A stretch of 64,000 bases of DNA, from the IMG/VR virus record IMGVR_UViG_3300048574_000421; one strand, written 5' to 3'. The position numbers were made by a program, and so were the translations under genes. The stretch is from a virus (lineage: Duplodnaviria; Heunggongvirae; Uroviricota; Caudoviricetes). Below, in pieces: positions 2,279-61,702 of the stretch. The notes beneath the pieces are model-generated. The model was not told the origin of the DNA. It did not search any database and worked only from the letters and a program-made list of their open reading frames with translations. Numbering within the stretch: position 1 is the first letter of the stretch; every line of letters starts with the position of its first letter.

Positions 2279-3736
2279 TTATTCTTTTTTTTCATCGACG
2301 CTATCAAAAATACCTTTTGTAGTTACGCCAATTTTACTAAGAAGACCACTAATGTCAAAACCCATTTGACTCATAACTTCTTGAAGCATTCCTAAATTTT
2401 TAGGAACTTGTCCTGCAAACTTTTGCATTCCGCTTTGACCATTTCCTGAGTCGATAATAACAACTTTATCAATAGCAGAAAGAGGTTGTGCAGCTTCTCT
2501 AACAATTGCAGGGAATTTTTCTAAGATACTTGGTAATTTCTCAAGGATCATTTGAAATTGTCCTGCATCATCAAGCATTTTATAAGCTTCAGCTTTTTTC
2601 ATAAGACCTTCAGCTTCACCCATAAGACGTGCTTTGATTGCGGCTCCTTCAGCTTCTCCAATTGCTAAGATTCTTGCAGCTTCTCCTTCACCTTCTAATC
2701 GAAGTTTACTCTTTGCAGCTTCAGCACTTTTAATTGTTGAAGCACGTTCACCTTCAGCTTTGGCAATTTTTGCAGTTGCTTCTTTTTCAGCAGGAACAAC
2801 TTTTTTCGCATGTTCTTCTTTTTCAGCGACAAGAATCATTTGTTCTTGAACCGCAATATTTGCTTTTTGACGAGCTTCTTCAATACCGACTTGCGCTTTT
2901 ATAACTTCTTGCATTGCTTCAGCATCAGATCTTGGTCCTGCTTGCTCTGCACGTGCTCGTTCTGCAGCTACTTGCGCATCAAACATTGCTTTCTTAACAT
3001 CACGTTCTTTAATTGCTTCAAAAGTAAGAGCATCGTTCTGTGCTGCAGCAATATTTCCATCTTTTTGTGCTGATGTTGATTGTTGTTTTGCTTCTTTATC
3101 TGCATTTGCTTGTCCAATTGAAGCATCACGCATAACTTCAGCAGTACGTTTTTTACCAAGGGACTCAATATACCCTGCATCATCAGTGATACTCTGAATA
3201 TTTAAAATGTCAATTCCAACACCAATTTTCCCAAGTTCACCGTCAGCTTCTGATTTTACTTTATTATTAAGAGCTTCACGATCTTTAATTAACTGTTCAA
3301 TAGACATTGTACCAATTACTGAACGTAATTGACCTTCAAGGTTTTCTTGAACTGTAACATGAATATCAGCATCTCTTTTCCCTAAAAATCTTTCGACAGC
3401 TGCATTAAGCGATGCTTGATCGCTTTTAATCTTACATGTTGCAACAGCATCAATATTTACTTTAACACCATCTAAGTTGGGAATTCCTTTTAATGGCATT
3501 TTCAATTGAAAAGCCGCCATATCCATTACTTGATAGTCTTCAATAACAGGCCATTTGAATTTAGCACCGCCAGTTACGACAACAAAACCTTTATCAAGAT
3601 GTTTTCTTCCAAAGAAAACAGCTGCTTTGTTGGGTGGTACTTTGATATAGTTCTTTGCAAGTAATGCGACGACAACTATTAAAGAAATTACAGCACCAAC
3701 TACTACAATTATCGGTAAAAAATCTTTAAATTCCAT
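2279..3736 (-). CDS. flotillin-like SPFH/band-7 domain protein
   Basis: N-terminal TM helix, then the SPFH core (KAAVFFGRKHLDKGFVVVTGGAKFKWPVIEDYQ...). A long A/E/K-rich coiled-coil region carries flotillin-type EA repeats (AEGERASTIKSAEAAKSKLRLEGEGEAARILAIGEAEGAAIKARLMGEAEG). Confidence 0.8.
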   Translation of the reverse strand: MEFKDFLPIIVVVGAVISLIVVVALLAKNYIKVPPNKAAVFFGRKHLDKGFVVVTGGAKFKWPVIEDYQVMDMAAFQLKMPLKGIPNLDGVKVNIDAVATCKIKSDQASLNAAVERFLGKRDADIHVTVQENLEGQLRSVIGTMSIEQLIKDREALNNKVKSEADGELGKIGVGIDILNIQSITDDAGYIESLGKKRTAEVMRDASIGQANADKEAKQQSTSAQKDGNIAAAQNDALTFEAIKERDVKKAMFDAQVAAERARAEQAGPRSDAEAMQEVIKAQVGIEEARQKANIAVQEQMILVAEKEEHAKKVVPAEKEATAKIAKAEGERASTIKSAEAAKSKLRLEGEGEAARILAIGEAEGAAIKARLMGEAEGLMKKAEAYKMLDDAGQFQMILEKLPSILEKFPAIVREAAQPLSAIDKVVIIDSGNGQSGMQKFAGQVPKNLGMLQEVMSQMGFDISGLLSKIGVTTKGIFDSVDEKKE

Positions 3737-3748
3737 TTAATCTCTCCT

Positions 3749-4321
3749 TCATATTATTTTAACAATTCCAACGTTTCCTGAAATTCTAATAATTTCAACG
3801 TTAGTACCTGACACAATTTGACAACCATTCTCTGATTGTACATCTAAAGAACGAACTTGACCTTCAATTTCGATAGTAATTTCTCCTGTTCCTTGTTGAG
3901 GTATACCAACTCTTAAAGGCGCTTTTAAGCCAACAAATTTTTCATTTGTAAAAAGTGATGAAGATTGTTGAGATAGAAAAAATTTGATTATACTCCATGC
4001 ACAAAATCCAATAATTATTCCAGATAACAAACCAAAAACACCATCAATAAAAATTCCCAATCCTATAATTTGACGTTGTTGTATCACCCAACTACTTATC
4101 CAACTGTGTGAAACAATTGCTCCCATCCCAAAACCTACAAGAAAACAAGCCATGACTTTTGCTGAGAAAAAACTTGGGCTAATTGTATTATCAACATCAT
4201 GTCCTGTAAAATCAATATGATGTTCAACATTTAACCCTTCAAACCCAAATAAAAATGATACAATCAAAAAAACAAACCCTGCTAAAAAAACACATAAATA
4301 AACTGTCATCAACATATCCAT
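3749..4321 (-). CDS. NfeD-like membrane protein (SPFH-associated partner)
   Basis: Three to four N-terminal TM helices, then a C-terminal beta-rich OB-like segment (GTGEITIEIEGQVRSLDVQ...GTNVEIIRISGNVGIVKII). It lies immediately upstream of the flotillin gene, which is the conserved NfeD-SPFH operon arrangement. Confidence 0.55.
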   Translation of the reverse strand: MDMLMTVYLCVFLAGFVFLIVSFLFGFEGLNVEHHIDFTGHDVDNTISPSFFSAKVMACFLVGFGMGAIVSHSWISSWVIQQRQIIGLGIFIDGVFGLLSGIIIGFCAWSIIKFFLSQQSSSLFTNEKFVGLKAPLRVGIPQQGTGEITIEIEGQVRSLDVQSENGCQIVSGTNVEIIRISGNVGIVKII

Positions 4322-4323
4322 TT

Positions 4324-4674
4324 TTAACTCTCCTTTATAAACTTAAATTTATTTGACTTTGTCTTATCTCCTACATGAGGTTTTTTGACATCGCCTGTTT
4401 TCTCAAAACAATCTTTACATATATGTTTTATAAGAAATATTGTTTGTGAATGTTTTCCCTCAGTTTTAGTTTGATTAACGTATTTTTCGCCTGGTAAAAT
4501 CGCTTTTTTACATTCAGTACATTTCCATTTTTTTCTTGCTGTAGTTGCTTTTGTAGTATATTTTGTCCCTGCAGCATCATGATAAGCATCAATCAAGTCT
4601 TTTCTTCCTTGATTTATCACATACTCAAAAATCTCTTCTAAAATCTTGTGTTGCTTGTTATATTCATAATACAT
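4324..4674 (-). CDS. hypothetical Cys-rich (zinc-ribbon-like) protein
   Basis: CTECKK...CKDC cysteine pairs. No further homology recognised. Confidence 0.4.
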   Translation of the reverse strand: MYYEYNKQHKILEEIFEYVINQGRKDLIDAYHDAAGTKYTTKATTARKKWKCTECKKAILPGEKYVNQTKTEGKHSQTIFLIKHICKDCFEKTGDVKKPHVGDKTKSNKFKFIKES

Positions 4675-4677
4675 GTT

Positions 4678-4839
4678 TTAATCTTCTAATTCAAGGACAA
4701 TATTTGTATCTAAGAGATTCACAGAAATGATTTTCTTTCCTAAAATTGTTATAGGATCTACAAGTTGCATTTGCTCATTAAAAACTACTTGAGTCCCGCC
4801 CAAATCTGGATGTGATTCATATTCAATCAAAATTTTCAT
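4678..4839 (-). CDS. small hypothetical protein (53 aa), not in the ORF track
   Basis: Hand translation of the minus strand gives MKILIEYESHPDLGGTQVVFNEQMQLVDPITILGKKIISVNLLDTNIVLELED*. It ends 3 nt before the start of the 4324..4674 gene. Confidence 0.3.
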   Translation of the reverse strand: MKILIEYESHPDLGGTQVVFNEQMQLVDPITILGKKIISVNLLDTNIVLELED

Positions 4840-4870
4840 ATTGTTTTATATATTGTATATTTTCGAGATA

Positions 4871-4904
4871 AAACAAAAAAGTCTCTGGCGCAAGTACCAG
4901 AGAC
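4871..4904 (-). terminator. rho-independent terminator downstream of the tmRNA gene
   Basis: Perfect 8-bp stem gtctctgg / ccagagac with an 8-nt loop. On the minus strand it is followed by TTTTTTGTTTT. Confidence 0.55.
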
Positions 4905-4957
4905 TTTAATGAAGAGCTGGGATAGCTCTTTAGACAGGACAGGGATAAAAATTAAAA

Positions 4958-5360
4958 TGGAGGTAAAGGGAATTGAACCCTTGTCCATAGAACAATCCAA
5001 ACAAACTTCTACATGTTTATCTGATTTGTATCTTACATTCTTTTATCTTAAAACCAGAAAACTTTCTAAAAGAACGGCATAAACGTAATTTCGGTCCCCT
5101 TCTCACTTATGCACTTCGGTTTTCCTACGCTGTGTCAATTAGATCTTAAGCTCCACAGTATTGCCTAAGTTCTTCGTTGCTTTTAATTAAGCAACAATTG
5201 TATTCGCCATGCCCAAACGAACATTGTTCGCAAAAGCAAGAGCGAAATTAACTGCAATTTTGTTGACAGTTATATTGTAACCAGATTTTTAACGAGGCCA
5301 ACTGATCATCCTCGGCATGCAATCTGCACTTCATGTTCCATGTCGAAACCTGATACCCCC
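4958..5360 (-). ncRNA. ssrA: tmRNA (transfer-messenger RNA, ssrA)
   Basis: The minus strand 5' end GGGGGUAUCAGGUUUCGACAUGG matches the canonical tmRNA 5' end (E. coli GGGGCUGAUUCUGGAUUCGACGGG). Downstream, GCAUGCCGAGG...GUUGGCCUCGUUAAAAA matches the PK1 region of E. coli ssrA almost base for base. The 3' end GGACAAGGGUUCAAUUCCCUUUACCUCCA is a tRNA-like T-arm plus acceptor. The 5' GGGGGUA pairs with the 3' UACCUCC, giving the G3:U70 alanine identity pair, with discriminator A and CCA not encoded. Length is about 400 nt. The segment is ORF-free in the track. Confidence 0.75.
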
Positions 5361-5435
5361 CCAAAATTTTCAAAGAACTTTATCTAAAAATACAATAAAA
5401 CAAACAAGAATATAAATAATTTTTCAAATAAAAAC

Positions 5436-5666
5436 TCAATTTTTTACAAACCATTCCCATAAGTAATTGGTTTTTTTTCTTTCAGTTTTAATTGAAAAGT
5501 ATTCAATGTCTCTCCATTTAGTCATTATTCCGACTGCATCATTTTCTATAGAATGAATTTTACAAACTTCTCCTTTACTAAACACACAGCCAGGTTCCAT
5601 TATTTCTGGCACATGTGTTTTAGCTATTAAAGAGTCTCCTTCTTTAATCAATTCGAAGTTATTCAT
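5436..5666 (-). CDS. hypothetical protein (76 aa)
   Basis: ORF track only. Confidence 0.35.
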   Translation of the reverse strand: MNNFELIKEGDSLIAKTHVPEIMEPGCVFSKGEVCKIHSIENDAVGIMTKWRDIEYFSIKTERKKTNYLWEWFVKN

Positions 5667-5672
5667 TAAATT

Positions 5673-6878
5673 TCATCCTACAGGTAATCCTGACATGTAT
5701 CCATTAGTTTCACCAACTAAATCTTTCATACCTTTTGCTTTAACTTCTTCAAATTGATTTTGAAAAACAAAAAACAATCTCATGACCGAAGTTGGTTTTT
5801 CATCCCAATCAGAAACTTTCAAAGGATCAATAACAAGTTGTTGATTTATTTCAGCACCTGCACCTACACCTACTTCTTTTACTGGTGTTTCAATTCTTTG
5901 TTGAATAGCTAAATCAACACAAGCTCCACCTGCTACACCTTCAGGTCCATTGAGTCCTTGTACGCCACGTACTCCGGATTCATGATCGACATTGCTATAA
6001 AAAGAAGCACTATCTAAGCAAGCATAACTCTCTGCAGATCCTGTTGCAAGTTTTCGACTATTAGAAAGACTTTCAAAACTAGAATTTGAGCTTTTTACGC
6101 TTCTCAATGCCATTTTAGAATTTGACTTATTTACAGTCAGATTTGCGTCTGGATTACTTTCTCCAAGACCAATGCTCCCTGCTGCATAACATTGAGTAGA
6201 TGTGTGAAAATTACAGCTTTTTGCTAAATAATTTGAAGAGGATATATGGTTTGAATACTTAATTGGTTCATTATAAGTATGCCAGATTGTCTGTTGAATA
6301 ACTGGACGTTCTCTTCTTACTTTAGATCTAAAGAAAGCAAAGCCAAAAGCGGGAACTGTATCTTCTTTACCAATTACTAATTCAGGAATAGATTTTGCAA
6401 GATCTTCTGTAAAAAAGAATTGTCTTACTTTTCCATCACTTGTACGAAAACCATCCCACCATAATCTATTTGGGTGCGATACATAATTTTGCGCAGGCCA
6501 CTTGAAATTACATTTTTCGCAAAACAAACCTTCTTTGAAAGGTTCATCATGTATAGGACACTTGTCAACATATCTTTCAAGTGAAAACCCGTTAGAACGT
6601 TGTCCTGTAATTGGATTCATGCCTTTTATTGACATTAAAACTGCAGTGTTCATTTCATCATTGAGCGTCCAATCAAACCACAATCCCCAATTAGGATCAA
6701 CAGGAATTACATAGTTACCTTGTCCTGGAATCCAAGATGACAAAGGCTCTTTGAAAGAGTCAACTGGATAAACAGGTATTTGACGTCCAGAAGGAAGATC
6801 ATGTACACCTTCACCTGTCAACCTTATTGCTCTCATTATTCGTGCTGAAAACCCATTAAAATTCATTGTATACATCAT
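5673..6878 (-). CDS. hypothetical protein with CPIH-x(n)-CEKC zinc-ribbon module
   Basis: Contains DKCPIHDEPFKEGLFCEKCNF. The same module occurs in the next gene upstream. The C-terminal part is S/N-rich and low-complexity. Confidence 0.45.
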   Translation of the reverse strand: MMYTMNFNGFSARIMRAIRLTGEGVHDLPSGRQIPVYPVDSFKEPLSSWIPGQGNYVIPVDPNWGLWFDWTLNDEMNTAVLMSIKGMNPITGQRSNGFSLERYVDKCPIHDEPFKEGLFCEKCNFKWPAQNYVSHPNRLWWDGFRTSDGKVRQFFFTEDLAKSIPELVIGKEDTVPAFGFAFFRSKVRRERPVIQQTIWHTYNEPIKYSNHISSSNYLAKSCNFHTSTQCYAAGSIGLGESNPDANLTVNKSNSKMALRSVKSSNSSFESLSNSRKLATGSAESYACLDSASFYSNVDHESGVRGVQGLNGPEGVAGGACVDLAIQQRIETPVKEVGVGAGAEINQQLVIDPLKVSDWDEKPTSVMRLFFVFQNQFEEVKAKGMKDLVGETNGYMSGLPVG

Positions 6879-15803: not shown

Positions 15804-16508
15804 TTAGACAGAAATCTCTTTTTGCACAGTTTTCTTTGATTGCGTATGATAGAGAGAGTTGTACTTTTTGAGGAGAGAGAATACTTTGTAATAAATTGCA
15901 GCTTCTCTCGCTAGTGACACACTTGAAGATTTTTTTAAATACTCTAGTCTTTTTAAACCTAACTTAATTCTTGACCCTATAGATTCATAAAGCAAATCAG
16001 GTTTGCCTTCAGCTTTCCCAATTTTTTTTGCTATTCTTCTCAAATCATGATCTTTAAAATATTCTAACATTGCAATTTTTTGTTTTTTAGTCACATGTAC
16101 ATCAAGAAAATCTTCCATTTTTGTAATATCAATATTTCTAAAAAAACAAAGCAAGTTTATACGTTTTAGTGCACGTTTCTTATAATAACATACCATTTCT
16201 TGAGATACTTTTAAAATTCTACCCACAACTTCTTGTTTCTTTTTATAGAAAAACAATAAAAGTATCACATATTTTTCTATTTCTGGTAGCATGTGCTCTA
16301 TAACATAATTTACTTCATTGATTTTCTCTTCATTCTCGAGCTCAATTTGAACGTCTTCAGAAGTATAGAGACTGTCACTATTTGAAAAAAACAACTCTAA
16401 AAGATTATTGTCAATTCTGACTTCACGTTTATATGCACTGATATCTCCACTTGGATCAAAGTGTCTTATAATACTTGACTTACTTAATTTTGGGAGATAA
16501 TCATCCAT
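15804..16508 (-). CDS. hypothetical protein (234 aa), possible HTH at the C-terminus
   Basis: ORF track. The C-terminal KQKIAMLEYFKDHDLRRIAKKIG is weakly HTH-like. Confidence 0.4.
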   Translation of the reverse strand: MDDYLPKLSKSSIIRHFDPSGDISAYKREVRIDNNLLELFFSNSDSLYTSEDVQIELENEEKINEVNYVIEHMLPEIEKYVILLLFFYKKKQEVVGRILKVSQEMVCYYKKRALKRINLLCFFRNIDITKMEDFLDVHVTKKQKIAMLEYFKDHDLRRIAKKIGKAEGKPDLLYESIGSRIKLGLKRLEYLKKSSSVSLAREAAIYYKVFSLLKKYNSLYHTQSKKTVQKEISV

Positions 16509-17649: not shown

Positions 17650-17917
17650 AAAAACAAATCATATTAGGTTTGTCTTTAAAAAACATATATGCTCTACCTG
17701 TGTGCAATGCTCCAACACTAGAACATTTTTGTAATAATTGCGTCACTTGGCATTCTATAGATTGCATTGCAATATTATTTATACAAGAAGTTAAATGATT
17801 ATTATAGATATGCACAATTTGATTTGAAAAATCAGGTACTATAGAAGTGTCAATACACATACTTTCATCAAATTCTATTTGCAAATTATCTTCAAATTTG
17901 ACAACTCTTGCACGCAT
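17561..17917 (-). CDS. hypothetical protein (118 aa)
   Basis: ORF track. It overlaps the 5' end of 16666..17649 by about 90 nt, so one of the two starts is probably later than listed. Confidence 0.3.
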   Translation of the reverse strand: MRARVVKFEDNLQIEFDESMCIDTSIVPDFSNQIVHIYNNHLTSCINNIAMQSIECQVTQLLQKCSSVGALHTGRAYMFFKDKPNMICFYANENKFVFKDVFKRKISRFQFVFGDCNG

Positions 17918-18525
17918 TATTTCTTTCCATCAAACATGAAAGATTCATCAATTTCAAAAAATTTTGAAGCAACATTTTTCAACTCTTGTGAAGTAACATT
18001 CTTATTAGCAGAAAAAGAATATACTTCTACTTGAATATTTTGCAACTTTAAATACTCTACTAATGCTACAAAATCACCATCACCCGAGACTAAAACAACA
18101 GTGTCAAGAGCATCTTTCTTAGTGATGATATCTATTGCCATTTCAATATCTAAATTGCCTTTTGCTGACCCATCACTTCTTTTTTTCAAATCTTTTGAAA
18201 CTATATTGTAACCAATCTGTTTTAAAAAACTAACAAAACTTGTATTATCATTATCTCCTTTTACAAGATAAGCATTTGAAACACAAAGTTTTCTACCTTT
18301 AGTAATGCATTCAGTAAGTTTCTTAAAATCTATTTTTTTCTTAAAATTATCCATTGCACCATAATAGACATTTTGAACATCAACAAAAATCCCAACTCTT
18401 TCGTCAGGTGTGTTTCTGTTCTCTACTCTTACTTGAAACAAAAAATCCCCTTTAAGGGAATCAACAGCTTCAAGTAGTTTTTTATAGTTCTGTATTTTAC
18501 TTTCTTTCATTTTTTCCCTTATCAT
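17917..18525 (-). CDS. NYN-domain (LabA-like) putative ribonuclease
   Basis: GIFVDVQNVYYG ... VLVSGDGDFVALVEYLK...G..V.V matches the NYN/PIN-like acidic-residue pattern. Confidence 0.6.
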   Translation of the reverse strand: MIREKMKESKIQNYKKLLEAVDSLKGDFLFQVRVENRNTPDERVGIFVDVQNVYYGAMDNFKKKIDFKKLTECITKGRKLCVSNAYLVKGDNDNTSFVSFLKQIGYNIVSKDLKKRSDGSAKGNLDIEMAIDIITKKDALDTVVLVSGDGDFVALVEYLKLQNIQVEVYSFSANKNVTSQELKNVASKFFEIDESFMFDGKK

Positions 18526-25044: not shown

Positions 25045-25878
25045 TTATTGACAAGATAGACATCTTTTTGCATTATGAGCTTTAGCTACAAAAAGATTAT
25101 TACATTTGATGCATTTTTTTTCATACAACTTGGGATTGTTTTTTTTCGTATCACTAATTTTTTGTTTTGATTTTTCAGTATGAACCTTTCCAAAAAACGA
25201 ATTACCTTTACCTTTTGTCCGAGCACTAATATTCTTTTTTACTTCTTCTGAAAACTTCTTACCCTCAAGACTTTTAGTTATTTTTTGTTTAGACTCTAAA
25301 CTATGTTTTTTGCCAAACATTCCGTTATTTTCACCAGAAGAAGCACGACTTAATTTTCTTTTATGAGATTTAGAAAGAACTCTACCTTTATTTGCATTAC
25401 TTACTTTATCTTTTGCTTCTTGCGTATGTTTTCGTCCATACATACCATTTTTTTCGCCTGCTCCCTTGCCTTTTCTGTTTCTTTTTAACTTTCTAAGCGA
25501 TTTATCAGACAAATTATGTATTCCGTCACCACCATCTGTCAAATTTGTTAAAGGCCCAGTTTTTAAATCTATTCTACCAATTGATTTTATTAACTGTATT
25601 TCAAGTTTAGAAGCATCAACAAAGCTCAAATCTGTTTTTATTTTAATTCTAAAAGCATCTACACCTGTTTCTCTTTTAATCTTACAAATTTTATTTGCTT
25701 TTAATTTATTTGAGTCTTTATGTTTGTAAGCAGACTGTAAGTGGTGATCTATTCTATTTTCTCTTCCTAAACCTATATAAAAGGGTTCAAATGAAAACAA
25801 ATTATCAAAAACAATTGGTTTTCTTGGATCTAAATATGCATAAACATAAAAATCAGTTTTTTGACGATTTAATTTCAT
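25045..25878 (-). mobile_element. free-standing GIY-YIG homing endonuclease with NUMOD3 repeats
   Basis: GIY-YIG core FYVYAYLDP...PFYIGLGRENRIDHH. Three NUMOD3-like DNA-binding repeats (GMYGRKHTQEAKDKVS, GMFGKKHSLESKQKIT, SFFGKVHTEKSKQKIS). A C-terminal CxxC...CxxC. Confidence 0.75.
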
Positions 25879-31317: not shown

Positions 31318-32874
31318 TCAATTTTTTATTGCATCAACAAAATATTGTGGGAAAAATTTTCTATTTTGTTTAAGAAAGTAATTAAATTGACTATCCATGA
31401 TGTAGATCGTGCAAAAATCTTTTTCATGTCTTACACCACGACCTGCAGCTTGAACAAGCGTCAAAGCTGTTTTCCACTTATACCATTCACTATCAAGCTC
31501 CATACGTTTTTTTATTTGTTTGTCTCCCAAAAACATAAATGGCAACTTAACTATAACAACAAATCTTGCAAGATCGTCTTTTAAATCAACACCTTCTGTC
31601 ATTGAAGGTGTGATCAAAACTTTAGGCTCTTTTGTTTCTAAAAAACCTTTAAGTGCGTTAATTCGAGATTCACTATCATGTAAAATTAATCTTGATTGAT
31701 ACTTAGGATCGACGTTTTCTTTTATGTAATTTGCAATTTTATAAGAATGTGCATGAATCAATCCTTTTTCTGAATCATGAAACTCTAAAATCCTGCCTAT
31801 ATCAAAAGCTATTTTGGGTAAAGATTCTTCAATGTCGTTTTTTCCTAAATTCCCAGACCTTGTTAATATGATTGGTCTTATATCTACAGGAAATGAAGAA
31901 GGAACTTGAATAAACTTTGTCTTCTTAATATCTAAATCTAAATTTTTACAAAAACTATCTTTATCAAGAATTGTCGCTGACATAAATAGTTTTTTTTCAG
32001 CATGCCTAAAAAGTAAATTTTGAGCAAAAAACCCGACAGTTAAAGGTTTGAAAATAATTGTTTTTGACCTTAACTTTTCGTTAGTTGTTATATCAAAGAT
32101 CCACTCTATTTTCCCATAACTCTCCAAAAACATTTTTACACGTTCTTGTTGACTTATTAAGCTCTCAAGCTCTTTTTGAAGGTCAGAAATTATTGCTACA
32201 TCAAGAAATTTGTTTTTCAGTTTTTCTGTAGTTTCTTTTCTTCTTTCTTTTATTTTCTCTTGAAGCATCTTTAACCACTCGACATATTCTTCGAGTTTTT
32301 CATATAAAGGTATTTTTGAAGTTACACCAAGTTTTGAAAGATTGAAAGACGAAAAACTAAACTCAACAAACGACATACACTCATTATCTAAACTATGTGC
32401 TTCATCACATATCAAAAGTTTTCTATCAGGAAAAGTATTTGTGTAATTTGTAATACAAAGAAAGTACTTATAGTTCATTAAAGCAACAAAAGATTCTACA
32501 GCTTGTTGTTTTGCAACTTCATAAAAGCACTCGGGTTTTACAGGACATTGTTTTGTAGAACAATATGAATCTTCACATGTAAAATCAGGAAGCAATTTGC
32601 AAGGATAGTTGTTTCTACCTTTAAGAACTCTAACTCTACCCGAACTATAATCTTTTATGTATTGATCTTGAAGTATTTTTTGCGACGTTAAAAGGAAAGC
32701 AGATTTATAATAAAGTCCCAGACAAATTGCAATAGCGCTTTTACCTGAACCTGTAGGGCTTTCCAAAACAACATTCTCTATTTCTTCAGAATCTAAACTC
32801 TGTTGTATGTCGAGAATTGTTTCTTTTTGAAAAGGTCTGAACGTCGTGTGTGGGAAAAAATCGAGAACGCTCAT
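31318..32874 (-). CDS. XPD/Rad3/DinG-family Fe-S DNA helicase
   Basis: Motif I ESPTGSGKS, DEAH box ICDEAHSL, a Cys cluster between them (YPCKLLPDFTCEDSYCSTKQCPVKPEC), and motif VI QAAGRGVRHEKDF. Confidence 0.7.
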   Translation of the reverse strand: MSVLDFFPHTTFRPFQKETILDIQQSLDSEEIENVVLESPTGSGKSAIAICLGLYYKSAFLLTSQKILQDQYIKDYSSGRVRVLKGRNNYPCKLLPDFTCEDSYCSTKQCPVKPECFYEVAKQQAVESFVALMNYKYFLCITNYTNTFPDRKLLICDEAHSLDNECMSFVEFSFSSFNLSKLGVTSKIPLYEKLEEYVEWLKMLQEKIKERRKETTEKLKNKFLDVAIISDLQKELESLISQQERVKMFLESYGKIEWIFDITTNEKLRSKTIIFKPLTVGFFAQNLLFRHAEKKLFMSATILDKDSFCKNLDLDIKKTKFIQVPSSFPVDIRPIILTRSGNLGKNDIEESLPKIAFDIGRILEFHDSEKGLIHAHSYKIANYIKENVDPKYQSRLILHDSESRINALKGFLETKEPKVLITPSMTEGVDLKDDLARFVVIVKLPFMFLGDKQIKKRMELDSEWYKWKTALTLVQAAGRGVRHEKDFCTIYIMDSQFNYFLKQNRKFFPQYFVDAIKN

Positions 32875-33323
32875 ATATGCTCTATATCTTGTACTTTTGA
32901 TTTTACAATTTTATCGAAATATGAGGGCTTTATTTTCACTACACGCTTTCGTATTTCAACTATAATTCCATCTATATTTGAAAGATCACCTTGTTTTATA
33001 ATTACATGATCCCCTGTTTTAAATAACGAAGGTTTTGTTTGTTTTAATTCTACGTCAGTAACAGATAGCTTTTTAATTTGTGCTGATGTAAATTTTTGCG
33101 GACCTTCTTTTTTCGTCCCAAGAAATTTCAATACACCTTCAAAAACTAAAAAATTACTTACTTGTTGTGGTAAAATAGCAGTAGTAGAACGAATAAAAAT
33201 ATAACCTGAAAGCTCTTCTGAAGTAAACACTTCTTGAAAAGCCAAACTTTTTTGTTTTGAGACTAATTGATCTCTAATATATTGCTCAAAACCTTGGCGG
33301 ACTAAAAGAATATACCAACTCAA
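32871..33323 (-). CDS. NusG-like transcription antitermination protein (NGN + KOW)
   Basis: NGN start WYILLVRQGFEQYI. C-terminal KOW GDHVIIKQGDLSNIDGIIVEI. Confidence 0.6.
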   Translation of the reverse strand: MSWYILLVRQGFEQYIRDQLVSKQKSLAFQEVFTSEELSGYIFIRSTTAILPQQVSNFLVFEGVLKFLGTKKEGPQKFTSAQIKKLSVTDVELKQTKPSLFKTGDHVIIKQGDLSNIDGIIVEIRKRVVKIKPSYFDKIVKSKVQDIEHI

Positions 33324-35898: not shown

Positions 35899-36616
35899 CT
35901 AGTCTTGAATTCAATTTAGGTTCTTTTGCAAAATCTTTCTTTGATATTCGTTCAAGCATATTGTTAATTTGTCTAAACAAACTATTAAAATCTTCTTCAG
36001 TTCTTTGTGTAAACAAAATATCTCCATCAATAGGATATGCAAGCGCTCCATGAATTGATTCTAATGGATATTTATATAGTTCTTTAATGAAAAAACTATA
36101 AAAAGTGATTTGTGTATTGTTGTCAATATCTTTCTCTTTGCTTTTTGAAGATTTCCAATCAAGACAAATGATTATTTCATTGTTCTCAAGAATAATATCA
36201 ATCCTACCTGACAAAAAAACATTATCAAGATAAGGATTAATAAAGGGTATCTTACAATATTTTTCTATTTCAACTACTCTAAAACCTTCCCAACGTTTTT
36301 TCATTTTCTTGACATTTCCAATTTGCAATAATCCCTTAACTAAACAATCATCAAGTTCTTTTGCATTAGGAAAATTTAAACCCTTTGCTTCTGTACAAAA
36401 AGCTATAAACAATGCTTTCCAAGATGAAGCAATTTCATCTAAACTCATTCCATACTTGAAATGTAATTCTAAAGCTTTATGTAAGACTGAACCAAAAGTC
36501 GTAAAAATATATGCTTCATCAGCTGGTCTCTCATCAATAAACTGCCATTTGTACATTTGCGAACATTTAAAAAACGAAGACAAAGATGATGAAGAAACTG
36601 TTAAATAATCTCTCAT
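35840..36616 (-). CDS. Cas4/RecB-family PD-(D/E)XK nuclease with Fe-S cysteines
   Basis: N-terminal Cys (FFKCSQMYKWQF) plus a C-terminal CYFCQYKKTCAK triad. Core residues GRIDIILE...LDWKSSKS fit D...E.K. It overlaps the primase gene by 59 nt. Confidence 0.6.
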   Translation of the reverse strand: MRDYLTVSSSSLSSFFKCSQMYKWQFIDERPADEAYIFTTFGSVLHKALELHFKYGMSLDEIASSWKALFIAFCTEAKGLNFPNAKELDDCLVKGLLQIGNVKKMKKRWEGFRVVEIEKYCKIPFINPYLDNVFLSGRIDIILENNEIIICLDWKSSKSKEKDIDNNTQITFYSFFIKELYKYPLESIHGALAYPIDGDILFTQRTEEDFNSLFRQINNMLERISKKDFAKEPKLNSRLGDCYFCQYKKTCAKNDREL

Positions 36617-37959
36617 GATTTCATCTCGTTAAACAAAAACTCTACTGCTTTTTCATTTACTGTACCAATGTACATCGAGTTATAAGGTATTTTATTTTGT
36701 AACAGATCTTGCTTAATTTTTGCCTCTCTATTAGAATCAAATTTTAAAAGATTTGTAATTCTCATTGTATAAGCAACAACTTCATCTTCTGTAGCTTTGA
36801 TATCAAAATCCTTAACAATCTGTTCTATAACAAGTGACGTCTTCACTACTTGAATTGTACGAGGTGTTGTGTTTACGATAAAACTTTCTTTTGTTACTTT
36901 GCTTTCTTTTTCAAGTTGTCCTTCAGTTTTCCCCATACGTCTCAATAAAGCTTCCCACTCATTATCATTTTCTTTATCGATCATCACTTGTGGAATTGGT
37001 GAAATTTCTGATTCATCAACAATTTTTGAAAGAATGACTTTTTTAAACGTATCAATTGATTTCTTTTGTTTTTCATCAAGTAAACGAATTTTCAAATTAT
37101 CTTCATAAGCTTGAATAGAATCAAAACCCTTTGATTTTGCAAAACTGTCATTATAATCAGGTGCGACTTTGTATTTTATTGCATTTAGTTTTACAGTAAA
37201 TATAACTTTTTTACCTGACAATTCTTTACTATGATAATCAACAGGGAAAGTCACATTTACTTGACGTACTTCGTTAATTTTCATTCCGACAAGTTGATCT
37301 TCAAAATTATCAATAAATTGCTTTCTTCCATTGACAAGATCATTTACTCTAATCTGATAGTTCTTTGCTGTTCCACCTTTAAAAGGTGTTGTTTCTCCAT
37401 CAAGAACACCTTCAAAATCTATTAAAGCAATATCAAGATTTTCTAAAATTTCTTTTGTAGAGTCGTGAATTGTTTCGCTTTGTTTGATTTCTGCATCAAT
37501 CTTCTCTTTTAACTCAACATCAGAAATAGTTGTTGCTTCAAGTTTCTCTGTTTCTTTTATCTTATCTAATGAAACAAGTTTGACAGTCGGTTTTACTTCA
37601 GCAACAAACTCTATAGTAAGTGTTGATTTTCTTTTTAAATCTCCAAAGATCTTAAAATCTCTAGTCGAGACAAGACTAGTTTCTAATGTCGCAATGTCTC
37701 TAACAATCTGATCAATCATTGATTTATATAAACGTTCAACGCCAATTTTAGTTTCAGCAACATCTTGAGGTACACAACCTTTTCTAAAACCTGGTACTTC
37801 GATTTCAGACTTTACTCGTTCGTAAGCAGCTTTCTTTCTTTCATTCACATCATCAGCATCAACTGTGACAATGTATTTTACAGGTGTTGGCATTTTTTCT
37901 GTCTTAATGTCCATTATACTACTCCTTGTCTTTCTCGACAACTGTCGAAGATGCTTCAT
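36613..37959 (-). CDS. tig: trigger factor homologue (ribosome-associated chaperone/PPIase)
   Basis: Ribosome-binding signature PGFRKGCVP (TF: GFRKGKVP). FKBP-like domain IDFEGVLDGETTPFKGG...VNVTFPVDYHSKELSGKKVIFTVKLNAIK (E. coli TF: IDFTGSVDGEEFEGG...[27 protein letters not shown]). The overall three-domain length is 448 aa. Confidence 0.75.
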   Translation of the reverse strand: MKHLRQLSRKTRSSIMDIKTEKMPTPVKYIVTVDADDVNERKKAAYERVKSEIEVPGFRKGCVPQDVAETKIGVERLYKSMIDQIVRDIATLETSLVSTRDFKIFGDLKRKSTLTIEFVAEVKPTVKLVSLDKIKETEKLEATTISDVELKEKIDAEIKQSETIHDSTKEILENLDIALIDFEGVLDGETTPFKGGTAKNYQIRVNDLVNGRKQFIDNFEDQLVGMKINEVRQVNVTFPVDYHSKELSGKKVIFTVKLNAIKYKVAPDYNDSFAKSKGFDSIQAYEDNLKIRLLDEKQKKSIDTFKKVILSKIVDESEISPIPQVMIDKENDNEWEALLRRMGKTEGQLEKESKVTKESFIVNTTPRTIQVVKTSLVIEQIVKDFDIKATEDEVVAYTMRITNLLKFDSNREAKIKQDLLQNKIPYNSMYIGTVNEKAVEFLFNEMKS

Positions 37960-41943: not shown

Positions 41944-44900
41944 TTAAAAGTGCTTCTTTACTTTAAACAAAGGTTCAGATTCGTAAATTTTCATTCTTTT
42001 CTTTGAATGACCAGTAAGATATCGAATTCTATCATAAAAATCAACAATAATTGCTTCTTTTTTTTCATTATTTTCAGCTGAAGGGTATGGTCTTAACGTA
42101 CGTCCCACTCTTTGTAAGGACTTAATAAGCGATTTGCCTCCACCTGCCATAATTGCTGAACCTAAAGCAGGTATGTCTACACCTTCGTCAGCAACAGAAC
42201 TTCCTACAAGAACTTGTAATTGTTTTTTACGAACTTTGTTAAGTAAATCTTTTCGCATCTCTCCATCAACTTCACCTTGTATAAAAGCAACAGAGCTAAC
42301 TCCCGCCTTGTCTAGCATTTCACATAACACATCACCATGAGGTAACCTGGTGACAGTAATCAACACAGACTTACCTAACTCGAGTAATCGTAGGCAACTA
42401 TCAACAATCATTTCATTTCGAAGTTTATTGTTAACAATATAATCTTCGTAAATATTCCTAAAAGATTTTTGGACATATTTATATCTTGGATGCTCATTTG
42501 GGTCAAGCATGTAGATGTGAGGTTGTACAAGAAAACCTCGTTCTATAAGAAAAGATGCATCAATGTTACAAATCTGTCTGCCTGAATAAGCATCAAGCAC
42601 TTTATCAATTGATTTGTCTCTATAAGGTGTTGCTGAATTGTGAACAAGTACACCATTTGCGAAAAAATTCTGATTTTCTGGGCCTACATCTTCAATAGTT
42701 AAATCTAAAAGAAAATCTTCATTATTTTCTATTTCGTTTTTTGAAATTAATGTGATTATTGGATCTTCAAACAGTAAAAAACTTAATTTTTGTTTTAGTC
42801 TAAAAGCTTTAAGATCTTCTCTTCTCAAAACTAAGTAATTAAAATTTAATGATTTATAAATTTCATCTTTATAGTAAGGTATTCTATCCATACCATCATA
42901 TTCAAGATAAAAATCTTTTCCTTCATGTTTGACTTTAAAATCAGCAAAACATCTAGTTCCAGGAATGTTGGGATGTATTTCGTGACTTATATTATTCTTG
43001 TAAAGCCAATTATCAAGCATCATTTCACCTTTAGAATCACAAATATGCCCGTCTATAGCTTTAACAGATTTTGCATATCTTTTTACGCCTTCCCTTTTTA
43101 ATCTTGATTGCGAGACAAGACCAGAAATAATCATTGGCGTTATTATTTTTAATCTTTCTTCTTTTGTTTTCTTACTCCAAGCTTTTTTTGATCTTTTACT
43201 AACAAGTTCAGAATCAATAAAATTTGGATGGTGACACATTCTTTCAAATTTTTCAGGTTCTTCTTGTCTTAAGTGCTGCATTGTCTTTTTTTGCCTTGCA
43301 CTCATTTTTTCTCTATCTTTTTTTGTCAAATTCTTAAAAAATTCTTGTGATGCTTTGTTTCCTAGTTTAAGGAAGCTTTTTCGTCTAACCTGTTCATCAT
43401 CAGATAAACTGTCCCACCATTCTTTACGTTTTTTTGTTCTTATTTTATTCGATTCTTTAAGTTTGCATCTATCAGAACAATATTTATGTGGTGCAACAAC
43501 TTCTTTTCCACAAACGCAAAATCTTTTTATTTTCTCTATTGAACTAAACTTATCACCTATAGTCAAATCTATTGCTTTTTTAAAATCATTAATATCATTA
43601 ACATAAAATAAATGTGTTTCAGCACAAATTATTCTTATTTTTTCTTTATTTTCATTTTCAAAAATCAACTCAAATAATCTTTTTCCTTTGGCATCAATCT
43701 TAATAATTCTTGCTTTTTTAGGTTCCAATATTTTTTTAATTAGATTAAAAGTCATAACTTGAATAAATTTATCTTTATTTGCATAATACAAAGGTGATAA
43801 CTGACATTCTCTACCATCAGCAAGTAAGACTTTAGTTTTTTTATGAAGGCATAAACTGTACCGGTAATATGCATTTTGATATAATTTTGCCATCTGAATA
43901 TAAATCTCAGCAGTTGCACGATGACAATTACTTACAAGTATTCCTTCAGCAAAATAATTGTGATTATCTTCAACCTCAATATTATACCTTTTCTCATCTT
44001 TTATTTTCTTTTGCATCCTTACGCTCTTAACAACAGCTTCATCATGATTAAAAACAAAAGTGTTTATTTTTAATTTTGTCTCTTCCCAATTTTCTTCTAT
44101 GTCTTCATTTGTTAAATAAAGACATTTAAAATCTATTGATTCAAAACCCTTTTTTACTCTTTCAATCTCTTCTTTTGTGTGCCAAAAAGTTATATTACCA
44201 ACTTCAATTACTTTTCTTTGGTTTTTAATTTTAAAATCGGGATTTTTACTCCAACATTTTCCATCAGGTTTAGTGCCTATTCTTAACCAAAACTTACCAT
44301 TACCTGTATATCTAATCTCTGGTATTTTCAAATCTAGTATTGCTTGTTCTAAACGTGTTGGCTTTATTTCTTTTCCTTTTATACGTTTAGGTGCATTCAT
44401 AAATCTTTCTCTAACTATAGCCTTTTCTTCTTCTGTTTTATTTTCAAAATTTTTTAACCAGCCCAGTCTCATTCTCTCTCTTATTACAGGATTTTTATTC
44501 ATTTTAGACATTAAGCTTGAACGTACTTTAAAATGCTTCAATTTTGATTGTTCAGAAAATTTTATTTTTTCTCTGTGCACTCTCTCTCTATGTAAACATC
44601 TATGTTTTTTACAATAAAATCTTGGTCTTGACCTATTTGCATTAATTTTTAACACATCACTCTCTAACAAATCTTTTGCTTGAACATAACCCCTATTTTT
44701 TGTCCAAAACTTATGACTTGGTGTACAAAATATTAATTTTTCTTTTCCTTTAAAAACAAAAGTTATAATACACCAAGGTTCAGAAACTTGCGTTATTAAT
44801 CTACGTAATATTCGTTTTTGCTCAAAAATTTGTTTTTCATGATTATAAGATAAAACATGTGTAATTGCATCATTTTCACAAATATCTTTGATGTACATAT

Positions 44901-45675
44901 ATTCATCTAAACTTATATGTACGTGGGTTTCTGCTTGAAAACACTCATCATTTATTACAACATCAGCTTCAAGTACAGCTTTTCTAATATCTTCTTTTCT
45001 TTCAAGAACATGCTTTTGAATTTTTTCTTTAAACATGTTCTCTTCATCAATTGCACTGTATTTCAAATCAAATGCACTATGTAAAGTCTGTACAGTACAA
45101 ATATTTATTTGTTTAATATCGCAATGACCACCACCTATTTTCCCAACTTTTATTTGAAACATCTTTTCGAATTCATCAGCAGTTTGTTCAAGTAAATCTA
45201 TTGAATAAACAATGAAAAGAGTTTTTAAATTCAATCGTGCTACAATTGCAGCAGCAATAACAGTCTTGCCACCACCAGTTGCAACTTTTATTACACCACG
45301 TTCAGCTTCAATAGATTTTTCAACAACTTCATGCTGATAATCTCTTAATTGTTTTGAATGCATTTGCAAAGGTTCACCAATAATTGGAACATTACGTGCA
45401 TCTACAACATTAAAAGATAGACGGCAGTCATTTAATATGCTTTCTAATGTCGAATAAAGTCCTGTAGGATAACGAAGTTGTTCACGTTCAAAAAGTGTTA
45501 TATCAAGTTCTATAGTTTCTTTTCTAAATCTCGAATACTCTTCTCGAGAATAAGACATTTCATGCTCAATACGTCTAACAAGATCAGTATTCAATCTTAT
45601 GTTAGGTTTTAAATGAGTCCAAGTGTTTTCTATAACAATATCAAAATCTGCCATATTACTTTCTAATATAATCAA
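41944..45675 (-). CDS. SF2 DNA helicase (UvsW/XPB-like) precursor interrupted by two inteins
   Basis: Motif I KVATGGGKTVIAAAI. Motif II is reconstituted as VVINDE+CH (a DECH box) when residues 245-583 are removed. Motif III SATPYR follows residues 609-1013. Motifs V and VI are GSSVADEGVDIPALGSAI and QRVGRTLRP. Spliced size is about 499 aa. Confidence 0.8.
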   Translation of the reverse strand: MIILESNMADFDIVIENTWTHLKPNIRLNTDLVRRIEHEMSYSREEYSRFRKETIELDITLFEREQLRYPTGLYSTLESILNDCRLSFNVVDARNVPIIGEPLQMHSKQLRDYQHEVVEKSIEAERGVIKVATGGGKTVIAAAIVARLNLKTLFIVYSIDLLEQTADEFEKMFQIKVGKIGGGHCDIKQINICTVQTLHSAFDLKYSAIDEENMFKEKIQKHVLERKEDIRKAVLEADVVINDECFQAETHVHISLDEYMYIKDICENDAITHVLSYNHEKQIFEQKRILRRLITQVSEPWCIITFVFKGKEKLIFCTPSHKFWTKNRGYVQAKDLLESDVLKINANRSRPRFYCKKHRCLHRERVHREKIKFSEQSKLKHFKVRSSLMSKMNKNPVIRERMRLGWLKNFENKTEEEKAIVRERFMNAPKRIKGKEIKPTRLEQAILDLKIPEIRYTGNGKFWLRIGTKPDGKCWSKNPDFKIKNQRKVIEVGNITFWHTKEEIERVKKGFESIDFKCLYLTNEDIEENWEETKLKINTFVFNHDEAVVKSVRMQKKIKDEKRYNIEVEDNHNYFAEGILVSNCHRATAEIYIQMAKLYQNAYYRYSLCLHKKTKVLLADGRECQLSPLYYANKDKFIQVMTFNLIKKILEPKKARIIKIDAKGKRLFELIFENENKEKIRIICAETHLFYVNDINDFKKAIDLTIGDKFSSIEKIKRFCVCGKEVVAPHKYCSDRCKLKESNKIRTKKRKEWWDSLSDDEQVRRKSFLKLGNKASQEFFKNLTKKDREKMSARQKKTMQHLRQEEPEKFERMCHHPNFIDSELVSKRSKKAWSKKTKEERLKIITPMIISGLVSQSRLKREGVKRYAKSVKAIDGHICDSKGEMMLDNWLYKNNISHEIHPNIPGTRCFADFKVKHEGKDFYLEYDGMDRIPYYKDEIYKSLNFNYLVLRREDLKAFRLKQKLSFLLFEDPIITLISKNEIENNEDFLLDLTIEDVGPENQNFFANGVLVHNSATPYRDKSIDKVLDAYSGRQICNIDASFLIERGFLVQPHIYMLDPNEHPRYKYVQKSFRNIYEDYIVNNKLRNEMIVDSCLRLLELGKSVLITVTRLPHGDVLCEMLDKAGVSSVAFIQGEVDGEMRKDLLNKVRKKQLQVLVGSSVADEGVDIPALGSAIMAGGGKSLIKSLQRVGRTLRPYPSAENNEKKEAIIVDFYDRIRYLTGHSKKRMKIYESEPLFKVKKHF
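42637..43851 (-). mobile_element. intein 2 (405 aa) inserted immediately before helicase motif III
   Basis: Block A is CLHKKTKVLLADGRE. Block B is CAETHLFYV. C-terminal blocks are LLDLTIEDVGPENQNFFANGVLVHN followed by the +1 Ser of SATPYR. The internal zinc ribbon is FCVCGKEVVAPHKYCSDRC. The DUF559/Vsr-like module is LDNWLYKNNISHEIHPNIPGTRCFADFKVKHEGKDFYLEYDG. Confidence 0.7.
43927..44943 (-). mobile_element. intein 1 (339 aa) inserted in helicase motif II
   Basis: Begins with Cys (CFQAETHV...). Block B is CTPSHKFWT. C-terminal blocks are YNIEVEDNHNYFAEGILVSN followed by the +1 Cys. The internal module LEQAILDLKIPEIRYTGNGKFW...PDFKIKNQRKVIEVGNITFWH is DUF559/Vsr-like. Boundary codons were checked against the nucleotide sequence. 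Confidence 0.7.
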
Positions 45676-59368: not shown

Positions 59369-59767
59369 TTATGATTCTGGTTCGTTCATAAACCAAGTCG
59401 TATTAAAATCCCAGTTTTCAAAAACATCAAGTGTTCCTTTTACTGTCATCACGTTTGTCGTTTTACCAAAACCTTCAACTGAAGTAGAAATACCTGAAGT
59501 TTGTGTATCCCAATAAGATGGGCCCAAACTAATCCATTTTGCATAAAGCGTCAAATCAAATGTTGCAAAAAACGTGCTATACTCGAAATAATCTGTGCCA
59601 GAGCCATCAGGTTGTGTATTCCAGCAATAAAAAAAATAATCATCTTTTACTAAATCACCATGCGGTAAAATAGACACCGATGTTTCTTGCAGATAAGGAC
59701 TATTACTATCTACAGGTGCTGTGCCACTAGTATTACCATTACCTTGATATGTAATTACAATTGCCAT
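59369..59767 (-). CDS. Listeria-Bacteroides repeat domain protein (132 aa)
   Basis: ITYQGNGNTSGTAPVD ... FFYCWNTQPDGSGTDYF ... LTLYAKW fits the about 70-aa Listeria-Bacteroides (InlB B-repeat-like) domain. Confidence 0.55.
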   Translation of the reverse strand: MAIVITYQGNGNTSGTAPVDSNSPYLQETSVSILPHGDLVKDDYFFYCWNTQPDGSGTDYFEYSTFFATFDLTLYAKWISLGPSYWDTQTSGISTSVEGFGKTTNVMTVKGTLDVFENWDFNTTWFMNEPES

Positions 59768-59789
59768 AATTTTCTCTCATTTAATTATT

Positions 59790-61676: not shown

Positions 61677-61702
61677 AATTTTTCTACTCTCATATTAGAT
61701 TA

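Follow-up and report, generated by a model that had tools for sequence, protein, structure and literature searches.

The 64-kb stretch of viral DNA examined here (64,000 nucleotides of the IMG/VR record IMGVR_UViG_3300048574_000421, Caudoviricetes; hereafter the window) contains a complete gene for transfer-messenger RNA (tmRNA, ssrA) at positions 4958-5360 of the minus strand, and our analysis confirms that this gene is real and lies inside a phage genome. Judged from sequence, it very probably encodes a functional one-piece tmRNA of an uncultivated huge phage of ~427 kb, inherited vertically in a small phage clade. Homologous genes are found in related metagenomic contigs at the loci L032, L033 and L034; L033 lies, together with the loci L001 and L002, on the 424,144-bp IMG/VR contig IMGVR_UViG_3300029288_006769, referred to below as the 424-kb relative.

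The complete gene had been proposed in an initial annotation of the window. ARAGORN returned exactly the same coordinates, and the tmRNA is the single RNA gene that this program detects in the 64 kb. The covariance-model search to which the proposal had been tied gave a significant full-length match: the Rfam tmRNA family RF00023 aligns to 4955-5360 over model positions 1-374 of 374 with 127.2 bits (E 2.3e-49; gathering score 47). No other Rfam family exceeds the threshold in the window, and the same scan detected no riboswitch with the tmRNA. The 403-nt RNA folds better than 100 out of 100 shuffled sequences, with a z-score of -4.2 for the minimum free energy (MFE). The sequence elements for trans-translation are present, i.e. 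a tRNA-like domain with G3:U70, a T-arm, the pseudoknot PK1, a resume codon, an open frame and a stop codon in helix 5:

4958-5360, minus strand: one-piece tmRNA (ssrA) gene, 403 nt (ARAGORN, RF00023, MFE z-score, homologues L032, L033/L001 and L034)
5354-5360, minus strand: 5' strand of the acceptor stem, GGGGGUA (gene positions 1-7), which holds G3 of G3:U70 (sequence)
4958-4965, minus strand: 3' strand of the acceptor stem, UACCUCC, with the discriminator A (gene positions 396-403), then UUU (Rfam alignment, sequence)
4966-4982, minus strand: T-arm, stem AAGGG/CCCUU and loop UUCAAUU (gene positions 379-395; Rfam alignment)
5280-5314, minus strand: PK1, interleaved, stem 1 at gene positions 47-51/64-68 and stem 2 at 55-61/75-81 (covariation)
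5187-5267, minus strand: tag frame with the resume codon GUC at 5267-5265, the 26 codons VNKIAVNFALAFANNVRLGMANTIVA and the stop UAA at 5189-5187 (coding part 94-174 in ARAGORN)
5176-5195, minus strand: helix 5, a hairpin GUUGC/GCAAC whose loop holds the stop codon (covariation)

The acceptor stem can be read directly from the sequence and forms as the initial annotation had described it, with seven pairs between the 5' and 3' ends (G1:C, G2:C, G3:U, G4:C, G5:C, U6:A, A7:U) and an unpaired discriminator A; the 5' end, the PK1 region and the tRNA-like 3' end quoted there all occur in the sequence as written. Because UUU follows the discriminator A, the 3' CCA is not encoded in the window gene; L033 and L034 do not encode it either, while L032 does. 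The T-arm AAGGG-UUCAAUU-CCCUU and the D-loop analogue GGUUUCGAC are aligned to RF00023 at high posterior probability, and the gene shows the combination that characterizes a tmRNA: an analogue of GGxUUCGAC in the D-loop, a T-arm of 5 bp and 7 nt, and no anticodon arm. PK1 (GCAUGCCGAGG...GGCCUCGU) matches the consensus of the RF00023 family, as in bacterial one-piece tmRNA, and its topology is explicit in all four homologues.

Conservation of the helices was assessed in a curated alignment of the four RNAs with an RNAalifold consensus. Canonical pairs occupy 347 of the 373 cells (93%) of this consensus, and 27 out of 94 predicted pairs are changed on both sides, including pairs of the acceptor, H2 (helix 2), PK1 stem 1, helix 5, the T-arm and the long 3' hairpin. 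Pairs 6 and 7 of the acceptor stem are compensatory among the relatives (UA/AU, UA/GC, CG/GC); in the T-stem, A:U is replaced by C:G in L033 and L034; stem 1 of PK1 changes from G:C to A:U in L034, and its stem 2 is re-paired with other bases in L033 and L034; in helix 5, U:A becomes C:G in L034. None of the four homologues has lost G3:U70, the discriminator A, the A at position -4 or the stop codon inside the helix 5 loop. The covariation of four sequences is supportive, but not statistical proof, the sequences being few and related, and some helices predicted in the tag region are probably artefacts.

The start of the tag deserves closer attention. The initial annotation had read it from GCA at 5255 to UAA at 5187-5189; frame and stop codon are correct, but the start probably lies four codons earlier. 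GCA 5255 is in the same frame as GUC 5267, but stands 24 nt from PK1. The GUC codon (gene positions 94-96) follows PK1 at a distance of 12 nt and is preceded by UAACU, with U at -5 and A at -4. For E. coli, a resume codon 12 nt after PK1 with UAGUC upstream has been described, in which A86 at -4 is nearly invariant and sets the frame (PMC2481249). All four homologues have the resume codon 11-12 nt past PK1 and an A at -4, and the 424-kb relative carries the canonical GCC (Ala) at the position equivalent to GUC. Because of the spacing from PK1, the bases at -5 and -4 and the GCC at the same place in the relative, GUC 5267 is the most likely start of the tag, four codons upstream of GCA 5255.

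The full tag would thus be (A)VNKIAVNFALAFANNVRLGMANTIVA with 27 residues, one carried Ala and 26 encoded. Its length is exactly 26 codons in each of the four homologues, and all four tags have the motif V[NDK]FAL[AR]FA in common; the three closer tags also share ANNVRLG[MIV]AN[TS][IV]VA. The tags end in TIVA (window and L032), SVVA (L033) or LVAA (L034), i.e. they are hydrophobic and Ala-terminal, but not ALAA. The unusual ending had made the initial annotation uncertain of its tag reading; this caution was reasonable, and the ending is real and kept in the relatives. In the comparison of the window with L033, identity is 83% in the tag region and 62% in the remaining RNA; 8 out of 14 differences in the tag fall on third codon positions, and four codons are changed synonymously. 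This pattern of conservation therefore suggests that the tag peptide itself is under selection in the virus, though the substitutions are few. A literature search with the tag peptides as strings gave only irrelevant matches. An ssrA tag with the ending LVA confers a half-life of ~13 min in E. coli, compared with ~8 min for LAA (PMC3511798). Since the tags end in IVA, VVA or VAA and an LVA tag is degraded fast in E. coli, a degron function is plausible, and the hydrophobic IVA end probably still directs tagged products to proteolysis.

The relatives place the gene firmly among phage genes. Searches of IMG/VR with a 401-aa Cys-rich protein, whose gene lies upstream of the tmRNA in the window, and with a flotillin encoded on the other side both reach the same contig, the 424-kb relative. 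There, a tmRNA (147 bits; tag ANNYAVKFALAFANNVRLGVANSVVA before the stop) directly follows the 401-aa homologue near position 200,000; the flotillin homologue (91% identity) is situated ~11 kb further and is followed by an array of 17 tRNAs (L002, 13857-21283, plus strand). The window is without any tRNA gene, and the equivalent region would fall beyond its position 1. A metagenome scan with an alignment of the 401-aa protein recovered 64 loci, among which ARAGORN predicts a tmRNA only in L032 and L033. L032, from activated sludge, has the closest 401-aa neighbour (87% identical) and a tmRNA at 5489-5897 with the tag VNKIAVDFALAFANNVRLGIANTIVA. The fourth tmRNA was recovered in L034, a contig of 111 kb, at 6235-6629 by an nhmmer profile of the three other RNAs (E 9e-57; Rfam 99 bits); its tag is DKAKVASVDFALRFAEMCSISTLVAA, the C-terminal half of which differs from the other tags. 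The identity of the 401-aa homologue decreases to 55% in L001/L033 and 52% in L034.

According to tblastn, eight genes upstream and four genes downstream of the tmRNA (encoding the 53-aa and 116-aa proteins, a membrane partner of the flotillin, and the flotillin) are found in at least one related contig. Given this two-sided synteny, the tmRNA is best regarded as a gene internal to the phage genome and inherited vertically within a clade whose genomes exceed 400 kb. At the remaining 60 loci, where the 401-aa homologue is 35-71% identical, the available sequence contains no tmRNA; hence, the gene is either limited to a sub-clade or located elsewhere in those genomes.

The exact pattern of the tmRNA 5' end has no match in IMG/VR, and the conserved central block of the RNA is found there in the 424-kb contig only. 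A degenerate tag-coding pattern occurs at 22 loci of the same database, of which only the 424-kb contig is real; for the remaining ones, nhmmer gave no full-length tmRNA match, but two short weak fragments only. With blastn, the tmRNA has no match in 50,697 GenBank phage records or in E. coli genomes, and only two short generic matches in plasmids. By protein similarity, the closest cultured phages are Ackermannviridae-like phages and Bacillus jumbo phages at ~27% identity.

By extension from established tmRNA biology, the gene would act in five steps. It would be transcribed as its own unit, ending at the terminator at 4907-4878; the ends of the transcript would then be trimmed and CCA added by a nucleotidyltransferase. 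The alanyl-tRNA synthetase of the host would charge the RNA with alanine through G3:U70. Together with EF-Tu and SmpB, the latter provided by the host or encoded elsewhere in the phage genome, the RNA would enter ribosomes stalled on truncated mRNAs. Translation would resume at GUC and add (A)VNKIAVNFALAFANNVRLGMANTIVA, and the ribosome would be freed at UAA. The likely benefit is that ribosomes would stay free during a long infection while host mRNAs are degraded and the host's supply of ssrA may fall; the same benefit has been proposed for huge phages (PMC7162821) and marine myophages (PMC9004378).

Several observations weigh against this interpretation. The window gene is without an encoded CCA, a Pfam search found no SmpB domain in any scanned open reading frame (ORF) of the 64 kb, and a scan for the sigma-70 consensus upstream of the gene revealed no convincing promoter. 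The region of PK2-PK4 can be traced as covarying hairpins only (gene positions 191-248, 203-231 and ~291-329). The bias in codon positions of the tag is based on few substitutions between related sequences; furthermore, the tag does not end in ALAA, and its recognition by a protease is putative. Finally, the acceptor stem of L034 contains an A.C mismatch at pair 5 and two G.U pairs, and this copy was missed by ARAGORN, probably due to its weak acceptor stem. Therefore, not every copy need be active.

Among the alternatives, the one that fares best also assumes an active tmRNA, but considers the tag a phage-specific signal instead of a copy of the host degron. The phage RNA would then out-compete the host tmRNA, so that stalled products meet a fate chosen by the phage (escape from the host's SspB/ClpXP, delivery to another protease such as Lon, or a selective recycling of host proteins), or it would counter host defences that cleave mRNA or stall ribosomes. 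Mollicutes provide a parallel, as their tmRNA tags are long and targeted by Lon. In favour of such a signal, the tag is two to three times longer than the common 10-11 residues, has no ALAA and, between the window and L033, is more conserved than the structural RNA; V[NDK]FAL[AR]FA persists even in L034, whose C-terminal half has diverged. Selective tagging of host proteins has also been proposed for phage tmRNAs (PMC9004378). On the other hand, the window was found to encode no phage protease or adaptor, and IVA, VVA and VAA are small hydrophobic ends of the kind seen in known degrons, of which LVA acts nearly as fast as LAA (PMC3511798). We consider this explanation unlikely, though the least so of the three alternatives.

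Considerably less probable is that the gene is a decaying relic, i.e. a tmRNA captured from a host, passively carried and inactive, with a long tag that results from read-through of a lost ALAA stop. The internal FALAF indeed resembles the canonical FALAA end with 13 further codons behind it; the missing CCA, the weakened acceptor stem in L034 and the 60 loci that have the neighbouring gene without a tmRNA would also fit. However, the helices are kept by compensatory changes in spite of neighbouring proteins that are only 52-55% identical, and every copy retains G3:U70 together with the discriminator A, the -4 A and the helix 5 stop codon. The tag has exactly 26 codons in all four homologues, its extension is itself conserved (ANNVRLG[MIV]AN[TS][IV]VA), and no other part of the RNA is as well conserved between the window and L033 as the tag region.

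The weakest alternative, raised by the initial annotation, is a host ssrA at the junction between a prophage and the chromosome, with flotillin, epimerase and GNAT as host genes. In its favour, ssrA is a classic target of integration, fragments of it may be carried by prophages (PMC9004378), and cellular-type domains are encoded on the left side. The probability of this reading is nevertheless close to nil, because the 3' end of the tmRNA is not repeated, no integrase is found, neither composition nor strand breaks at the site, and the supposedly cellular genes recur in related phages. The search for a direct repeat of the 3' end, which the annotation had suggested as a possible att site, found the last 20 or 29 nt in a single copy in the window at up to three mismatches. 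Pfam detected no integrase domain in the scanned ORFs of the window. Synteny with the 424-kb viral contig extends to both flanks, and the arrangement is alike in L032 and L034; the flotillin, the membrane partner, the 116-aa gene and the right-hand genes all accompany tmRNA-bearing phage contigs, which refutes the junction. Nor did the tag-coding pattern, scanned against 185,579 species-representative genomes of bacteria and archaea, reveal a bacterial source or host ssrA: none of the seven hits is a tmRNA according to ARAGORN and Rfam.

The window gene can be compared with known systems. The initial annotation had called a tmRNA inside phage genes unusual, which does not hold up. tmRNAs and SmpB have been reported in huge phage genomes (PMC7162821), phage G encodes a 308-nt tmRNA with the tag AKLNITNNELQVA (PMC12484599), and a survey from 2021 found tmRNA genes in 402 out of 18,146 phage genomes, i.e. 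~2.3% (PMC9004378). The present gene resembles those of huge phages as a complete gene in a non-coding gap of a genome above 400 kb with tRNAs and translation-related genes, represented here by the trigger factor in the window and the 17-tRNA array in the 424-kb relative; its tag is twice as long as AKLNITNNELQVA of phage G. The tmRNAs of marine myophages (Melnitz, pelagimyophages; PMC9004378) are likewise complete phage ssrA genes with no integrase nearby, and have been proposed to maintain the hijacked translation machinery; they are circularly permuted, two-piece and accompanied by a glutamine riboswitch, whereas the window RNA is a standard one-piece tmRNA.

With E. coli SsrA, the window RNA shares the acceptor stem with G3:U70, the T-arm, a long H2, a resume codon spaced 12 nt from PK1 with the same bases at -5 (U) and -4 (A), and the helix 5 stop codon. 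It differs in being phage-encoded, with 403 nt and no encoded CCA; in the resume codon, GUC (Val) instead of GCA; and in a tag of 26 codons ending in IVA, compared with ~10 codons ending in ALAA. Long tags of ~26-27 residues, hydrophobic and ending in -FA or -VA rather than LAA, are known from Mollicutes with their low-GC genomes. In these general features, i.e. length, hydrophobicity, ending and low GC content of the genome, the window tag is similar. UGA is a stop codon in 21 of the 54 ORFs of the window; therefore, the host does not use the Mycoplasma genetic code.

As tmRNAs in huge phages are already known, the conserved 26-codon tag without ALAA is the only unusual point. The gene adds a well-supported case, with four homologues and covariation, to the translation-system genes of huge phages, and it indicates that a phage tmRNA can be inherited vertically in a clade instead of being a one-off capture. 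If the host's own tag differs, the phage would provide a tractable system for what is gained by re-tagging stalled proteins; otherwise, this is an ordinary, correct annotation with a conserved, unusually long tag.

The immediate surroundings of the gene comprise the following features:

4868-4907, minus strand: predicted intrinsic terminator with a 12-bp stem, a 6-nt loop and a T run, ~50 nt past the mature 3' end
5364-5376, minus strand: 5'-flank motif TCTTTGAAAATTT, conserved, just upstream of the mature 5' end
5673-6878, minus strand: gene of the 401-aa Cys-rich protein, the upstream syntenic anchor; its homologues directly precede the tmRNA in relatives
4324-4839, minus strand: downstream syntenic genes for 53 and 116 aa; by tblastn, both are found in L001 and the 116-aa gene also in L032 and L034

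The gene had been credited with its own terminator, and a GC-containing 12-bp hairpin with a T run is indeed predicted downstream at 4907-4878 of the minus strand; a T-run block, TTTTTTGTTTT, behind a GC-rich hairpin is common to the window, L033 and L034. On the other side, TCTTTGAAA is invariant in the four upstream regions, directly before the mature 5' end, and the flank TCTTTGAAAATTT may be a promoter or a processing signal. As a recurring phage promoter, TCTTTGAAAATTT is unsupported, with three matches in the window where 2.3 are expected. The gap of 760 nt, previously described as free of ORFs, is truly non-coding from ~4840 to 5435; it also holds two small conserved ORFs of 76 aa (5436-5666) and 53 aa (4678-4839), both with homologues in related contigs. 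In L034, a homing-endonuclease gene of the GIY-YIG/NUMOD3 type (5109-5966, plus strand) is an insertion that separates the 401-aa gene from the tmRNA; at this point, the window carries nothing but the 76-aa ORF. A gene of the same type is located in the window at 25045-25878 (minus strand).

The 401-aa protein has many Cys residues, e.g. in CPIHDEPFKEGLFCEKCNF, and its 64 relatives originate from metagenomes of sediment, sludge and other sources. Neither Pfam nor PHROG contains a matching family, and no GenBank phage matches; by its distribution, it is a widespread protein of huge phages. To the left of the tmRNA lie the genes of an SPFH/flotillin protein, its membrane partner, an NAD-dependent epimerase and a GNAT acetyltransferase. 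The flotillin gene and that of a 190-aa membrane protein in an NfeD-like position, which has no Pfam match, span 2279-4321 (minus strand); the proteins are 91% and 70% identical to their counterparts in the 424-kb relative, and on this comparison the pair is a conserved phage-borne membrane-scaffold module.

The window as a whole is, by its predicted gene content, one same-strand replication and recombination module of a huge phage. Each of the 54 credible ORFs is encoded by the minus strand, and the GC content varies between 27 and 35% (~31% overall), with neither strand nor GC content broken across the site of the tmRNA. Domain searches identified SbcC-like and SbcD-like nucleases, a UvsX/RecA recombinase and a gp32-like single-stranded DNA-binding protein; a DnaB helicase, a helicase loader and a DnaG primase; RuvC, a flap endonuclease (FEN), a ligase-like protein, HU and a PD-(D/E)XK nuclease; two further helicases, one with an intein, and a GIY-YIG homing endonuclease; and NusG-like and sigma-70 region-4-like proteins as well as a trigger factor. 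The intein (Intein_splicing, HINT, ~residues 260-583) interrupts a 1243-aa helicase (ResIII, Helicase_C) at 41944-45675 (minus strand).

The trigger factor is full-length (Trigger_N, FKBP_C, Trigger_C; 36613-37959, minus strand) and represents a second translation-associated gene besides the tmRNA. It is recorded with 100% identity on contigs of up to 426,911 bp, and has ~20 metagenomic relatives that are 40-60% identical; its nearest cellular homologues, from Firmicutes, reach 31-36%, which is a weak hint at a Firmicutes host. Clear AAGGAG Shine-Dalgarno sites precede 21 out of 54 ORFs and argue against a Bacteroidota-type -7 promoter and host, which had been considered because of a TTTG motif. 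Sigma-70 region-4-like (15804-16508), NusG/KOW-like (32871-33323) and NYN-domain (17917-18525; predicted RNase fold) proteins, all encoded on the minus strand, suggest a phage control of transcription and RNA turnover, which would be relevant to the need for ribosome rescue. At the far end of the window, a protein of 2664 aa (51304-59298, minus strand) contains bacterial Ig-like, CHB_HEX_C and Fn3-associated domains; the proteins that follow it at 59369-63772 (minus strand) carry Listeria-Bacteroides repeats and GLUG motifs. All of these are candidate surface proteins, adhesins or virion fibres.

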